Below are positions 5,355-9,109 of a DNA stretch of 19,460 bases, piece by piece (the stretch's first letter is position 1; each line of letters opens with the position of its first letter). The notes below the pieces were generated by a model that searched no databases, was not told the origin of the DNA, and saw only the letters and a program-made list of their open reading frames with translations. Source of the DNA: a virus (Duplodnaviria > Heunggongvirae > Uroviricota > Caudoviricetes); IMG/VR virus record IMGVR_UViG_2693429706_000003; one strand, 5' to 3'. The position numbers and the translations under genes were made by a program.

Positions 5355-5717
5355 TTAATGACCTGCTGCGCGTAGTTTTCCGTCAGGTTCACCGGCAAGA
5401 GTCAGTAATTGTCCCTGGTCTTCCTGCAGAATAGTCAGGCGACCACCGCGATTGACATACATCGGTGTTTCGGTGGTGTCTTCTTCGGAAATTTTCCCGC
5501 GGTTAGTCGGGCGAACATATGAGAGTTTGTGTTTGATTTTCACACGGTTCTCATCAAATGGTTCGATTTCCAGGTTGAGCGAGACCTTACCTTTGGTTTT
5601 CGTGTTCATCACACCGGAAGCGACTTCACTGAGAACTGCGCCGATTTTGGTTTCAAATACGCCGCCGTCCAGCTCCCCGATAAATGCCTGCACATCAGTA
5701 CTGCGTTCGCTAGCCAT
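5355..5717 (-). CDS. yfdP: YfdP-like hypothetical protein, first gene of the leftward operon
   Basis: Start chosen at ATG 5717 (MASERSTDV...) with GAGGAG SD 7 nt upstream, giving 120 aa. The ORF-track start at 5903 has no SD. Confidence 0.5.
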   Translation of the reverse strand: MASERSTDVQAFIGELDGGVFETKIGAVLSEVASGVMNTKTKGKVSLNLEIEPFDENRVKIKHKLSYVRPTNRGKISEEDTTETPMYVNRGGRLTILQEDQGQLLTLAGEPDGKLRAAGH

Positions 5718-5765
5718 TTTGCTGCTCCTCATCATATCGACCCTGCAAGGTCGGTTAGTTTCTCC

Positions 5766-5854
5766 ACAAAACAGAGAAGAACACCTGCGGTGGCAGCCGC
5801 CCGGATGGATTGGGTTATGAGCCCGTCGTCCGGTGATGCTCTTCTCTGTTTTGT
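5766..5854 (-). other. 15-bp perfect inverted repeat with a 59-nt GC-rich spacer; candidate structured cis-acting RNA in the early-left leader
   Basis: ACAAAACAGAGAAGA (5766-5780) is the exact reverse complement of TCTTCTCTGTTTTGT (5840-5854). The spacer holds further short complementary runs (CCGGA 5801-5805 / TCCGG 5829-5833). Confidence 0.4.
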
Positions 5855-6337
5855 AAAAAGAGCGGTACCAGCCGGAAGCAAGTGTACAAACTGGTACCGC
5901 CAAAGCAGTGGCTGTTGTGGTGACCGGTGCTGATCTCCGGCTTGCGGTTATTTCAGACTCTCACGGGCGTTTAATTGCCCCGCCGAACAGCTCTTTTCCG
6001 CAATAGCTGCAATGTCTTTCGCGCATCAGCCTGCGCATTCACCACAACGCTGAGAGCACTTAGCCAGTTACGGCACCACACTTTGTCGCGGTTCCATAAA
6101 TGCCCTCATCGTTGCACCCTGGTCTCTTCCCAGGCGTCAAACCGAATCGCCACGCTGGTTAGGCGTCTTATCAGCATCATCATTGACTTGCACATTCCGG
6201 CTACCTGGTTTGTTTGCTCGAGCAAGGAGTGGATTGTCCCCTTTAACGTCCCCAGACCGCTAACGACGCATGTGCCATACGCCGTGTTACAACCAAATTT
6301 AGTTTAATCTTGCCTGTGTTATGTTTCTTTTAGATAC

Positions 6338-6365
6338 ATTATGTATCTCAAGGGTACATTGTCAA
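6338..6365 (-). promoter_or_regulatory. candidate PL-like early-left promoter with an embedded operator
   Basis: Minus strand reads TTGACA (6365..6360), a 16-nt spacer, then CATAAT (6343..6338). Operator-like ATGTACC-N5-GATACAT lies inside the spacer (plus 6341..6359). Confidence 0.45.
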
Positions 6366-6368
6366 GTA

Positions 6369-6392
6369 TAAAAAAACCTGCCGAAGCAGGTT
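6369..6392 (-). terminator. intrinsic terminator downstream of the cI-like gene
   Basis: CCTGC (6377-6381) / GCAGG (6386-6390) stem with CGAA loop. The A8 run at 6369-6376 on the plus strand is the U-tract on the minus strand. It sits 12 nt past the cI stop. Confidence 0.5.
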
Positions 6393-6403
6393 ATAAATAT
6401 TGA

Positions 6404-7078
6404 TTAGGCCTTTATTTTGTATCTTCTTGGTTTTCCTGAGAAAATCACTGTACCAATTATAGAGCAATTACCGTTGATCTTAATGTAAGGTTCAGGCCAG
6501 TTTGGGTTTAATGCTTTGAGGTAACGCTGTGTTCCATCTTCTATCAACCGCTTGAAGGTGGTTTCGCCTGTATCGTGCATCAATGCAATAACGTCGTCAC
6601 CGTGGCAGGCAGGGACTTCAGGATCAACAAAAATCATGTCTCCCGGGCGGTACTCATCAATCATTGAATCACCAATCACCCGCAAGATATAAGTCATTTC
6701 GCCACAGGGTACAGGGCAGGGATAAGTTTCTGCTGTGCTCAAATCAACCTCAGAATAGCCAACTTCTTTCCATGCTCCGGCCTGTACCCATGATATGACA
6801 GGGACTAACGTTATTTGTTTGTTAGTAATTGAAACATCAGGTTTTTTTGTGATGTTTGTTGTCTGGTGTTCTTGATCAAGCCATCCGACAGGCAGGTCGA
6901 AACATTTTTCGATGTGCCGTGCCATGCTGTCACCGATATTTTTAGTAGCACCATCTCCCATAAACCTGCTGGTCTGGGTTGGCTCGCGATCAATCATGGT
7001 GGCAAAGGAAGAATTCCCGCCAACACCATCTCTCAGTTTTCTGGCGTTAGACCGCCGGATGTCATGGACTGTTTTCAT
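6404..7078 (-). CDS. cI: CI-like prophage repressor (N-terminal HTH plus C-terminal S24 LexA-type peptidase domain)
   Basis: 224 aa. C-terminal 'VIGDSM' nucleophile-Ser motif and downstream Lys ('TTFKRL') typical of the LexA/CI autocleavage domain. Divergent from the cro-like gene, with operators between them. Confidence 0.85.
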   Translation of the reverse strand: MKTVHDIRRSNARKLRDGVGGNSSFATMIDREPTQTSRFMGDGATKNIGDSMARHIEKCFDLPVGWLDQEHQTTNITKKPDVSITNKQITLVPVISWVQAGAWKEVGYSEVDLSTAETYPCPVPCGEMTYILRVIGDSMIDEYRPGDMIFVDPEVPACHGDDVIALMHDTGETTFKRLIEDGTQRYLKALNPNWPEPYIKINGNCSIIGTVIFSGKPRRYKIKA

Positions 7079-7168: not shown

Positions 7169-7369
7169 ATGAAAGCGTATTGGGACTCTTTAACCAAAGA
7201 ACAGCAGGGCGAGTTGGCCGGAAAAGTTGGCTCAACACCAGGCTACTTACGGCTGGTTTTCAATGGTTATAAAAAAGCCAGTTTTGTGCTGGCTAAAAAA
7301 CTTGAGCAATGCACGTCAGGTGCAATTACGAAATCTGACTTAAGACCGGATATCTATCCGAAAGATTAA
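7169..7369 (+). CDS. cro: Cro-like HTH regulator
   Basis: 66-aa ORF with GGAGG upstream and an HTH-like segment 'QGELAGKVGSTPGYLRLVFNGYKK'. The ORF-track version from 6866 is antisense to cI and was rejected. Confidence 0.6.
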   Translation: MKAYWDSLTKEQQGELAGKVGSTPGYLRLVFNGYKKASFVLAKKLEQCTSGAITKSDLRPDIYPKD

Positions 7370-7400: not shown

Positions 7401-7964
7401 ATGAGGCTAACCGTGGGTAAGCATCACTGGAAAGTAGAAAAACAGCCTGAGTGGTACGTGAAAGCTGTCAGAAAAACTATCGCGGCGTTGCCGGGAGGTT
7501 ACGCTGAAGCTGCTGAGTGGCTGGATGTAACAGAGAACGCTTTATTCAACCGCCTTCGTGCAGATGGCGATCAGATTTTCCCGCTGGGATGGGCAATGAT
7601 TTTACAGCGCGCGGCTGGCACTCACTACATTGCGGATGCTGTCGCACAGTCTGCTGGTGGGGTGTTTGTATCGCTTCCTGAACTTGAGGAAGTAGAGAAC
7701 GCCGATATAAACCAGCGCCTGCTGGAAGTCATCGAACAGATCGGGAGTTACTCAAAGCAGATTCGTTCGGCAATCGAAGATGGGGTAGTGGAGCCACACG
7801 AGCAGACAGCAATTAATGATGAGTTGTATCTGTCAATTTCGAAGCTCCAGGAGCATGCAGCACTGGTCTACAAAATCTTTTGCGCTCCAGAAAAGAGTGA
7901 CGCCCGCGAGTGTGCAGCTCCGGGCGTCGTGGCGTTTTGTGTCTGTGGAGAAACTAACGCATGA
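7401..7964 (+). CDS. CII-like phage regulatory protein (YdaT/CP76 family, tentative)
   Basis: 187-aa ORF directly after cro. Family call rests on position and overall resemblance only. An alternative GTG start at 7413 has an AGG 6 nt upstream. Confidence 0.45.
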   Translation: MRLTVGKHHWKVEKQPEWYVKAVRKTIAALPGGYAEAAEWLDVTENALFNRLRADGDQIFPLGWAMILQRAAGTHYIADAVAQSAGGVFVSLPELEEVENADINQRLLEVIEQIGSYSKQIRSAIEDGVVEPHEQTAINDELYLSISKLQEHAALVYKIFCAPEKSDARECAAPGVVAFCVCGETNA

Positions 7965-9109
7965 ACAGTTTAACGGCAAATAACCGTTTGTCGCAACAGC
8001 TGGTGGTCAGCGTCGCTGAACACCTGTTGTTACGGCATGAATGCAGATTACCAAATCACCTGGCTGTAAGTAACCACAGAGAACTTTACCTGACTGTGGG
8101 GGGCGAGTTGTGCAGGAACTTAACCGCTGGTTTCGTGACGGAAGAGGGCTTTATGTCCATGTTATTCGTTGGGAGCCAGAAACACAGCGCGTTATCTATC
8201 TTCGCAAAGACTACCCGCATGAGTGCTTTAGTCCTTTGTGGAAATTCAGGCGTGATTTTGTTGAGTGTGAAGGACCACCAGCACATTGATTCTGCCATTC
8301 CGGGACGTTACACTGTTCAGGCACCTTATAAAGCGGGTGTCGGGATTGGCGTCCTGGAAATGTTATCGGCGATATATGACGCGCCAGCGTCTTTTTTATC
8401 GTCTGCGTCTGTGCACACCCAAATTATGGTGGGCTGGACGGGGGCACCGAAAGGTGCGCCGGTTTCCGATAACGCCGGTTACGCCAACCCCGTTCAGTTC
8501 ACCACCAGCGAAATTGGCGTTTCCGGTGGTGAAGGTAATTCACTGTTATCGGAGACTGCCATCATGGCTACGATCCCAACCCTCACTCAACCTGAAATTG
8601 CCATCGTTGATGGTCAGGCTGTTACTTCATCCCTGGCTGTTGCCAACTTCTTCTCCAAACGTCATGACGATGTACTGAAAAAGATCCGCACGCTTGAATG
8701 TTCCGCATCATTCACTGCCCGCAATTTTTCGGTGAGTGATTACACCGATTGCACAGGCCGCAAACTACCTTGCTATCAAATAACCCGCGACGGCTTTGCG
8801 TTTCTTGCTATGGGTTTCACGGGTAAACGTGCTGCCCAGTTCAAAGAGGCATACATCAATGCCTTTAACCAGATGGAGAAACAGCTTTCAAAGCCCGCTG
8901 TACCGAGCGACGTTGCACATAACGCCAGCGTTCTCTATTCCTACATTTCATCAATTCATCAGGTCTGGTTGCAGCAGCTTTATCCCATGCTGGAAAAAGC
9001 TGAATCACCTCTGGCTGTAAGTCTGTATGACCGAATTAACGATGCGGCATTTCTTGCCCGTCTTATTCATTCGTCGCTGAACTCTTCAGAGGTAAGGGGG
9101 CGCAAATGA
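7961..9109 (+). CDS. Rha-family phage regulatory protein with a ~200-aa unrecognised N-terminal region (may instead be two genes, with Rha starting at ATG 8564)
   Basis: Residues from 'MATIPTLTQPEIAIVDGQAVTSSLAVANFFSKRHDDVLKKI' match the Rha domain as recalled. ATG 7961 overlaps the upstream stop (ATGA). Third-position GC favours frame 2 over the alternative frame in 8101-8220. GGAG lies 9 nt before the internal ATG 8564. Confidence 0.5.
   Translation: MNSLTANNRLSQQLVVSVAEHLLLRHECRLPNHLAVSNHRELYLTVGGELCRNLTAGFVTEEGFMSMLFVGSQKHSALSIFAKTTRMSALVLCGNSGVILLSVKDHQHIDSAIPGRYTVQAPYKAGVGIGVLEMLSAIYDAPASFLSSASVHTQIMVGWTGAPKGAPVSDNAGYANPVQFTTSEIGVSGGEGNSLLSETAIMATIPTLTQPEIAIVDGQAVTSSLAVANFFSKRHDDVLKKIRTLECSASFTARNFSVSDYTDCTGRKLPCYQITRDGFAFLAMGFTGKRAAQFKEAYINAFNQMEKQLSKPAVPSDVAHNASVLYSYISSIHQVWLQQLYPMLEKAESPLAVSLYDRINDAAFLARLIHSSLNSSEVRGRK

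Follow-up and report, generated by a model that had tools for sequence, protein, structure and literature searches.

The early-left leader and its modules

The window, by which we mean the whole 19,460-nt stretch of DNA analysed here, belongs to a lambdoid prophage of the mEp460/Ayreon/cdtI/Stx2c/SfV type, with 98–99% identity around the element that we call M4 in similarity searches. E. coli, Shigella, Salmonella and Klebsiella commonly harbour lambdoids of the SfV/mEp460/e14/ST64B/LLS type, among them some with Shiga toxin. Between the cI-like repressor gene and the first leftward gene of this prophage, the following features are found, all on the minus strand.

6404-7078, minus strand: cI-like repressor gene, with a Peptidase_S24 domain (Pfam)
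6375..6392, minus strand: terminator of the cI-like repressor gene, a GC hairpin followed by TTTTTT
6338..6365, minus strand: early-left promoter pL, with a TTGACA −35 element (6365-6360), a 16-nt spacer and a CATAAT −10 element (6343-6338); 11/12 matches in a consensus scan
6063..6300, minus strand: M1, a conserved structured leader RNA (similarity matches and consensus fold)
5914..6048, minus strand: M2, an RNA whose layout appears cloverleaf-like, with closing stem GUUGUGGUGA (6048-6039) / UCACCACAAC (5923-5914)
5855..5900, minus strand: M3, an intrinsic terminator, stem GCGGUACCAG/CUGGUACCGC followed by UCUUUUU; −21.2 kcal/mol
5756..5860, minus strand: M4, a 25-bp outer stem closing a three-way junction (repeat finder and folding)
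5779..5841, minus strand: core three-way junction of M4, with a 7-bp base, arm 1 (CCGGA...UCCGG) and arm 2 (GCGG-CUGCCA-CCGC)
5812..5824, minus strand: anticodon-arm mimic GGG-CUCAUAA-CCC at the tip of arm 1, inside the invariant core GACGGGCUCAUAACCCAAUCCA (5806-5827)
5737..5754, minus strand: small hairpin CCGACCU-UGCA-GGGUCGA between M4 and the ribosome-binding site (hairpin scan)
5355..5717, minus strand: first early-left gene, a YfdP homologue of 120 aa (ORF list, sequence and annotation of relatives)

The transcript from pL is predicted to start near 6331. Operator-like palindromes overlap the promoter (repeat finder), and the record of phage Ayreon has a promoter annotated at the same position. 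The yfdP-like gene starts with an ATG, whose A is at 5717, behind a Shine-Dalgarno sequence AGGAG at 5725-5729; its product has no Pfam family, and a YfdQ/DUF2303 gene follows it leftward.

An earlier, sequence-only reading described the region as an ORF-poor leader of ~690 bp that has no N-like gene. The length does not stand, because pL lies just left of the cI terminator, leaving about 614 nt of the leftward transcript between pL and the yfdP-like gene; the paucity of ORFs does. Apart from a TTG-started upstream extension of the yfdP-like ORF through M4, no minus-strand ORF in 5718-6400 exceeds 49 aa, and most of the ORFs there have TTG or GTG starts. Neither an N-like Pfam match among the leader ORFs and neighbours tested nor a conserved small Arg-rich ORF of the N type just downstream of pL was found in the leader. 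A degenerate boxA-like sequence, UGCUCUCA, occurs at 6058-6051 before M2 (pattern match), with no boxB-type hairpin identified. The prophage is an N-less lambdoid of the SfV/mEp460/e14 type.

Sensitive similarity searches show the leader to be a mosaic of independently conserved modules, M1, M2 and M3+M4, each with its own relatives. The ~600-nt "empty" leader of N-less lambdoids is in this sense a chain of conserved folded RNAs. None of M1, M2 and M4 belongs to an Rfam family: with Rfam 15 at gathering scores, only C4 and isrK were matched in the whole window, both outside the leader, and at E≤10 no credible match was obtained in 5600-6420.

M1 has a folding energy of −73.5 kcal/mol on the minus strand versus −58.4 on the plus strand, and its consensus fold contains 7 compensated pairs among 4 distant copies. 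Phage P1 has the same module between trnI and ban, and in a phiV10-like phage it lies just before tRNA-Arg. M2 is more widespread, with copies in 159 phage records (T1-like, N4-like, Vi01-like, P22-like, lambda-like and P1-like) and in at least 120 IMG/VR contigs. Members of the family have a 7-bp closing stem, a 5-bp hairpin GCGCA-GGCUGA-UGCGC, a variable domain of 27–169 nt and, abutting the closing stem, a last 5-bp hairpin GCCGG-AGAUCAGCA-CCGGC. The window copy is made up of the same parts, namely the closing stem, GCGCA-GGCUGA-UGCGC, a variable domain and GCCGG-AGAUCAGCA-CCGG(U), and by our own reading this layout resembles a cloverleaf. Both hairpin loops are invariant, and 5 nt of one are complementary to 5 nt of the other, which makes them candidates for loop-loop pairing. 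In an alignment of 41 M2 sequences, assembled by joining the conserved 5′ and 3′ parts through an artificial AAAA linker and gathered with a search pattern that fixed the first hairpin, 95.5% of cells pair versus ≤50% with the partners slid, none of 500 shuffles reaches any measure, and closing-stem positions show up to 5 pair types. Among 63 distinct contexts of M2, a boxA-like (U/C)GCUCUUU lies just upstream in 20 and a terminator-like site ≤150 nt downstream in 22; tRNA genes lie within 400 nt in eight, all on the same strand, and in one context a tRNA-Pro gene is nested in the variable domain. M2 does not fit hammerhead, twister, pistol or HDV-like ribozymes, retron RNA or tmRNA, as we take these structures to be.

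A terminator and a conserved three-way junction

The inverted repeat at the left end of the leader, noted before as a perfect 15-bp repeat around a 59-nt spacer with further internal stems, is exact both by sequence and by repeat finder: ACAAAACAGAGAAGA occupies 5766-5780, its exact reverse complement 5840-5854, and 59 nt separate the two. By our own arithmetic (19460 × 100 / 4^15), about 0.002 perfect 15-bp repeats with arms ≤100 nt apart are expected by chance in 19.5 kb. The arms extend to 25 nt (5766-5790 / 5830-5854) with 84% complementarity as DNA, and the mismatches become G.U pairs on the minus-strand RNA. The RNA of 5755-5865 on that strand folds at −51.2 kcal/mol versus −27.2 ± 3.5 for 200 dinucleotide shuffles (z = −6.8), none of which does as well. 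Its predicted fold is Y-shaped, a long stem with two inner hairpins that form a three-way junction, in keeping with the internal stems expected. From the end of the repeat element to the first leftward start codon we measure 48 nt, where about 50 had been estimated.

A second repeat of 10 bp had been noted just upstream, and this too is exact (GCGGTACCAG 5862-5871 / CTGGTACCGC 5891-5900, by repeat finder). On the leftward transcript it forms an intrinsic terminator whose position is conserved: a GC hairpin ending ≤3 nt from a T run is found at the M3 position in 50/58 distinct relatives of the class found in early-left leaders (class A), with different stem sequences, and the distance from the end of the T run to the junction base is 13 nt in nearly all of them. 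Since M3 precedes M4, M4 is transcribed only after read-through of M3. The U tract of M3 doubles as the start of the long stem of M4; pairing of this tract with GGAGAAA extends that stem to 5756-5860. The string CGCUCUUUUU within M3 was considered as a boxA and rejected, as relatives carry CGUCCUUUUU, CGCCCUUUUU or GCAUUUUUUU in its place and it is just the terminator tail.

M4 belongs to a family that we find in 71 phage records. A scan for the core pattern identified more than 120 IMG/VR viral contigs, and a scan of genomes gave 25 contigs, all but two from about 15 genera of Enterobacterales. Carriers include SfV, ST64B, cdtI, Stx2c phages, LLS and the e14 prophage of K-12. M3 and M4 recur together (5756-5900) in SfV, SfIV, ST64B, Klebsiella and Salmonella phages and e14 of E. 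coli K-12. With our covariance model the window copy scores 78.6 bits, and LLS has a full class A M4 scoring 76.9 bits. LLS also contains another terminator-plus-long-stem unit, farther upstream of M4.

All three helices covary across related prophages. In an alignment of 21 representatives, with the three helices specified beforehand, 93.8% of cells in the junction helices pair versus ≤52% with the partners slid, and the covariation score is 0.30 versus 0.145 for shuffles (0/500 reach it). The outer stem differs wholly in sequence between groups, with matching partners in each (ACAAAACAGAGAAGAGCAUC, ACGCAACACACGAGAGCAUC, CACAAUACCAAAGGCG, UGGCCUG), and in 43/48 distinct class A copies it is 20–27 bp long with at most one mismatch. 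Across these 48 copies the outer-stem pairs comprise 896 Watson-Crick, 169 G.U and 9 A.C. The large excess of G.U over A.C implies that the helices form in the leftward RNA rather than in its complement or in a DNA cruciform. Thermodynamic and comparative results agree with the earlier suggestion of a structured RNA element, and we conclude that the inverted repeat closes a conserved, strongly structured RNA in the early-left leader.

Two settings of M4 can be distinguished; all copies examined lie in early or late leaders of phages and prophages. Class A, to which the window copy belongs, has a constant order: a GC hairpin with a T run, the 20–27-bp stem, the junction, UGGAGAAAC, a small hairpin with a (U/G)GCAG loop, and the ribosome-binding site of the first gene. 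The small hairpin occupies the place of 5737..5754 in the window, and its stems are unrelated in sequence among the relatives. The gene that follows varies (two YfdP types, a YfdR-like, two RdgC-like and an excisionase-like gene, and xisE in e14), which shows that M4 is not tied to any one gene. Class B is found in Klebsiella-type lambdoids, whose leader between Q and the lysis genes carries a tRNA array (Asn, Phe, Thr, Arg) with M4 as its final member. Here it begins 5–6 nt past the CCA end of the preceding tRNA and is followed by a terminator. All 12 distinct class B copies have a closing stem of 7 bp followed by CCA, or of 6 bp, one unpaired base and CCA; the window copy, in contrast, has its 25-bp stem and no CCA.

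Likeness to the anticodon arm of CAU tRNAs

Arm 1 of M4 is tipped by a loop, CUCAUAA, on three G-C pairs. This is the anticodon-arm signature of a CAU-anticodon tRNA such as E. coli tRNA-fMet or tRNA-Ile2 (ileX, as in P1), with a 7-nt loop, U33 and a conserved anticodon on GGG/CCC. Fourteen nucleotides, CGGGCUCAUAACCC, are identical to the anticodon stem-loop of the E. coli initiator tRNA, a gene that every one of the 5426 E. coli genomes carries at 100% identity, with a median of four sites per genome. The 22-nt core GACGGGCUCAUAACCCAAUCCA that contains the arm is invariant in the M4 alignment, an apparent invariance inflated by a search pattern that fixed the core and by the close relationship of most copies. 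When the flanks were held fixed and the triplet was left free, CAU was found in more than 120 contigs versus 4 distinct real variants, which are UAU (in two backgrounds), AAU and CCU; the third position is never changed. The loop triplet is thus nearly invariant while the stems vary. A defective copy in e14 has the loop UUAAUAA.

The likeness extends beyond the loop. Class B copies have the 7-bp closing stem, the CCA and the spacing of a tRNA within an array. In our own reading of the sequence, the length of arm 1 approximates that of an anticodon-plus-D stack, and the stem with arm 2 that of an acceptor-plus-T stack. Among CAU tRNAs, the Klebsiella form is nearer to tRNA-Ile2 than to the initiator tRNA-fMet. 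The window copy departs from a tRNA in its 25-bp stem and its lack of CCA.

M4 is nevertheless not a canonical tRNA. ARAGORN, in bacterial and mitochondrial settings including the armless modes, made no call in the window, nor did it at the class B copies; with the Rfam tRNA model the neighbouring tRNAs are called and M4 is not. Class B copies match no Rfam family. M4 lacks a D arm and a T loop and does not form a cloverleaf. We therefore describe M4 as tRNA-like rather than as a tRNA, because the resemblance is limited to the anticodon arm, the position and the acceptor stem with CCA, and tRNA detectors are negative. That it is a structured RNA module derived from a tRNA seems to us very probable.

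Full-text literature searches found no paper containing the core sequence strings of these RNAs and no description of phage tRNA-like decoys that match them, and searches on ymfH together with RNase III returned unrelated papers only. The Pas sRNAs differ from M4 in being terminator-ended sRNAs of the Hfq type (PMC13192938). With no Rfam family and no paper found to contain its core, we regard M4 as an undescribed tRNA mimic or tRNA-like RNA in an unusual setting.

Several known RNAs offer partial parallels. The thrS operator is an anticodon-arm mimic in an mRNA leader and is bound by ThrRS. M4 likewise places a copy of an anticodon stem-loop in an mRNA leader near a translation start; unlike the operator, it has no synthetase gene downstream, the next gene varies, and the module is also free-standing in tRNA arrays. 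Species 1 and 2 RNAs of T4 are stable non-tRNA RNAs in a phage tRNA cluster, much as class B M4 is an unannotated structured RNA co-transcribed with phage tRNAs; we know of no anticodon-arm mimicry in the T4 species. We also considered pairing of the loop's CUCAU with AUGAG at the downstream start, and rejected it: it fits some relatives (...CCAUGAGU) and neither the RdgC-type starts nor that of the window.

Processing, possible roles and alternatives

How might M4 act? Our best reading, in which belief and doubt are about equal, is that M4 is a mimic module derived from a CAU tRNA, that RNase III cuts the class A duplex, and that the freed RNA acts via its anticodon-like arm. In class A, RNase III would cut the 20–27-bp duplex, freeing the junction as a small RNA and separating the untranslated leader from the early-left mRNA; the class B unit would instead be released by tRNA-processing enzymes. 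Once free, M4 may present its anticodon-like arm, in mimicry or as a decoy, to a reader of the anticodon arms of tRNA-fMet, tRNA-Met or tRNA-Ile2. Candidate targets are the 30S P site with IF3, MetRS, TilS and an anticodon nuclease.

These parts differ in strength. An RNase III step at the class A stem is plausible, if a little short of probable. The proposal is based on E. coli RNase III, the lambda N leader and T7 sites. RNase III substrates have about two turns (≥20 bp) of nearly uninterrupted duplex, and the window stem offers 25 bp. Like the RNase III hairpins of the lambda N leader and of T7 early mRNA, M4 presents a near-perfect duplex of 20–27 bp a short distance ahead of the first gene's ribosome-binding site. 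It differs from them in having a conserved junction, with its invariant core, enclosed by the duplex, and its cleavage is putative. The suggestion that the repeat is a processing signal is in this way kept alive by the 25-bp stem, as far as the duplex is concerned.

A role of M4 in trans, as a mimic, is more tentative, and we think it unlikely as matters stand. It is possible that such mimics are decoys that shield CAU-anticodon tRNAs (fMet, Met, Ile2) from anticodon nucleases; alternatively, they may compete at the ribosomal P site, or for MetRS or TilS. If these RNAs are indeed released and active, they would add a class of phage tRNA mimics, timely given tRNA-targeting defences and phage counter-measures. 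One leader RNA copies the anticodon arm of a methionine-type tRNA, and the same RNA is a hidden extra unit in phage tRNA arrays. If the reading is true, the 22-nt core and the 7-nt loop are small genetic targets in phages that grow on K-12 (Ayreon, LLS, mEp460). More speculative, and in our judgement rather improbable, is the broader idea that M4, M2 and M1 constitute an unrecognised repertoire of phage tRNA mimics ("pseudo-tRNA" units) that would be located in arrays or early leaders, excised by RNase P or RNase III, and active in trans, with M1 and M2 separately serving as an RNA-only antiterminator.

The main rival to a trans-acting mimic is a role of M4 purely in cis, in the processing, stability or translation of the early-left operon, as for the RNase III hairpin of the lambda N leader, with a junction that has no role of its own. 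Much about class A is consistent with this: M4 keeps its position, behind a conserved terminator and ahead of the ribosome-binding site of whichever gene comes first, its duplex is maintained at ≥20 bp, and a second conserved hairpin follows it. Such a role leaves the invariant 22-nt core unexplained, however, and likewise class B, where a 7-bp stem with CCA sits in a tRNA array and the next element is a terminator, not a gene. We consider a purely cis role somewhat unlikely.

It has also been suggested that M4 could be a put-like RNA, that is, a nascent structure that attaches to RNA polymerase and lets it read through later terminators. The put consensus is two stem-loops of about 70 nt, located between an early promoter and the terminators that are overridden; HK022 has one copy in each early operon, and put RNA binds the beta-prime zinc-binding domain, suppressing termination without protein factors. 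Like the put RNAs of HK022 and HK639, M4 is structured and sits in the early leader of an N-less lambdoid, and there are further terminators beyond it (in Ayreon, one is annotated behind the second gene). The authors of the LLS study, who found N missing from that phage, made the same guess of a put-like mechanism (PMC12315714).

Our results argue against this for M4. We located HK022 putL and putR by their mutual similarity, with the site confirmed by the annotations of HK75, O276 and HK639, and built a covariance model from seven put sequences that include these two; as positive controls, putL scores 96.6 bits and putR 48.4 bits, both being in the training set. With filters off and E≤10, the model finds no match in 5700-6400 or in the leaders of Ayreon, mEp460 and e14. 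On the ST64B locus it gives a single match of 8.7 bits (E 1.5) at the end of the repressor gene, so that nothing is detected in the leader sequence of the window or of the four relatives. Local alignments of the leader to putL and putR score the same as shuffles, and the put family is confined to 21 phage records, with no relative of the window among them. Placement is no better. M4 lies behind the first conserved terminator rather than upstream of it, it has no copy in the pR operon, and class B copies sit in tRNA arrays of Q-controlled late leaders, where put function would make no sense. Put RNA has two stems in a V, whereas M4 is a three-way junction. M4 is not a put RNA by sequence, structure or placement, and a put-like function for it appears very unlikely. 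If any part of the leader acts in a put-like way, M1 and M2, being upstream of the terminator, are better-placed candidates; lying ahead of the conserved terminator, they could form an RNA-only antitermination device unrelated to put.

Might M4 instead have no function as RNA, being a tRNA gene in decay or a palindrome that acts at the DNA level (a site of recombination or protein binding, or a small mobile repeat)? Its partial likeness to tRNA and the exchange of leader modules between phages as a mosaic could be accommodated in this way. Against it, three helices are preserved across genera by compensatory changes, and a DNA cruciform would not tolerate the one-strand bias of 169 G.U to 9 A.C. 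A dispersed repeat of the REP, ERIC or MITE kind was rejected on several counts: the window holds a single copy of M4 (and no other copy of M1 or M2), a search with the whole leader gives a median of one matching site per E. coli genome, and the position in the transcript is constant, unlike that of such repeats. We judge this explanation highly improbable.

The notion that the region is coding, whether for a small N-like factor or for extra N-terminal residues of YfdP, has next to no likelihood: a 182-aa TTG-started ORF (5355-5903) does stay open through M4, and an Arg-rich 25-aa ORF (5961-6038) lies within M2, but neither has a Pfam match, the ATG at 5717 has a good Shine-Dalgarno sequence of its own, M4 homologues are 63, 64, 65, 66, 84 and 88 nt long, differences that are not multiples of three and so imply that no reading frame is kept through M4, and the Arg-rich ORF begins inside an invariant RNA motif of M2 and meets a stop after 10 codons in a distant copy. 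Current annotation nonetheless calls these RNA stretches hypothetical proteins: the M3+M4 stretch is annotated as the protein YmfH (ymfH) in e14 of K-12, and "hypothetical" ORFs are annotated in mEp460 and Ayreon.

The M2 RNA and its neighbours in the early-left leader

Besides the tRNA-like RNA M4, the N-less pL leader contains three further conserved modules, M1 to M3, together with several smaller features.

Features of the pL leader (window coordinates)
6063-6300 (-): M1, a conserved structured leader segment, from similarity and consensus fold
6051-6058 (-): boxA-like sequence accompanying M2
5914-6048 (-): M2, a cloverleaf-like RNA
5961-6038 (-): 25-aa Arg-rich ORF (MRRLMRERH...)
5855-5900 (-): M3, intrinsic terminator
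5737-5754 (-): small hairpin separating M4 from the ribosome-binding site, loop containing (U/G)GCAG

M2 is present in 159 phage records from very diverse families; at least 120 contigs of IMG/VR also carry it. None of these records annotates it, and it has no match in Rfam. Its closing stem covaries, the two hairpin loops never vary and are mutually complementary, and a variable domain ranges in length from 27 to 169 nt. In one copy (L236), a tRNA-Pro gene sits inside this variable domain. The Arg-rich ORF within M2 starts at an AUG that lies in the invariant motif AUGCGCAGGCUGAUGCGC. In a distant copy of M2 the frame stops after 10 codons, and its N-like look is therefore a by-product of the RNA motif.

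M1, for which a comparison of four copies gave a consensus fold with seven compensated pairs, has a counterpart in the trnI-ban spacer of phage P1 (AF234172 71010-71194). It also lies directly upstream of tRNA-Arg in a phiV10-like phage, and is found in further prophage leaders.

What the sequence-only reading had listed as a second inverted repeat is the intrinsic terminator M3, whose position, though not its sequence, is kept in 50 of 58 relatives. This terminator precedes the entire early-left operon, in a phage without an N gene. The (U/G)GCAG-loop hairpin recurs at the same position in relatives, sometimes in two copies, with unrelated stem sequences; it may serve for protein binding or for processing.

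Related and possibly related RNAs in other phages and prophages

Loci concerned
L282 1200-1325 and 1519-1606: pL-leader elements of phage LLS
L131 3062-3124: diverged M3 and M4 of an E. coli K-12-type e14 prophage (45.3 bits)
L023 597-675 and L025 3747-3825: late leaders of Klebsiella-type lambdoids, led by an isrJ-like sRNA
L004 1231-1302 and 1508-1563 (ban-operon strand): weak M4-model matches in P1
L005 1866-1937 and 2143-2198 (ban-operon strand): weak M4-model matches in RCS47

Phage LLS has been studied in the laboratory, and N was reported to be absent (PMC12315714). Its pL leader contains a full class A M4, the long-stemmed leader form, preceded upstream by a second terminator-like hairpin and then a long-stem element of another kind (ACAACGUGAAAGCGCACUC...GAGUGCGCUUCCAGUUGUGG); L160 has a similar one at ~7210-7300. 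In e14, the M4 copy has the loop UUAAUAA. There M3 and M4 fall in the interval that separates xisE from the repressor gene ymfK, within an ORF that annotation calls YmfH; it is therefore unlikely that this ORF encodes a protein.

In the Klebsiella-type late leaders the isrJ-like sRNA (56-60 bits) comes first; between two and four tRNA genes stand behind it, and after these class B M4, the short-stemmed form ending in CCA. The short pR'-type transcript is therefore crowded with RNA genes. The matches in P1 and RCS47 (22-31 bits, E 0.0003-0.05) lie downstream of the P1 tRNA genes, antisense to the annotated plp and upl; they hint that this stretch may encode more tRNA-like RNAs, instead of or besides those small proteins.

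RNA genes within ORF 7961-9109

8321-8397 (+): isrK (Rfam, 61.5 bits)
8422-8509 (+): C4 antisense RNA (Rfam, 82.8 bits)

Both Rfam matches (8321-8509) fall within a 382-aa ORF (7961-9109). They coincide with its Pfam 'Phage_ASH' match (aa 117-212, ~nt 8309-8597), after which comes a Rha domain. Either the ORF is an artefact of annotation that spans a c4/isrK-antirepressor immunity unit of the P1/Gifsy type, or this stretch is of dual use.
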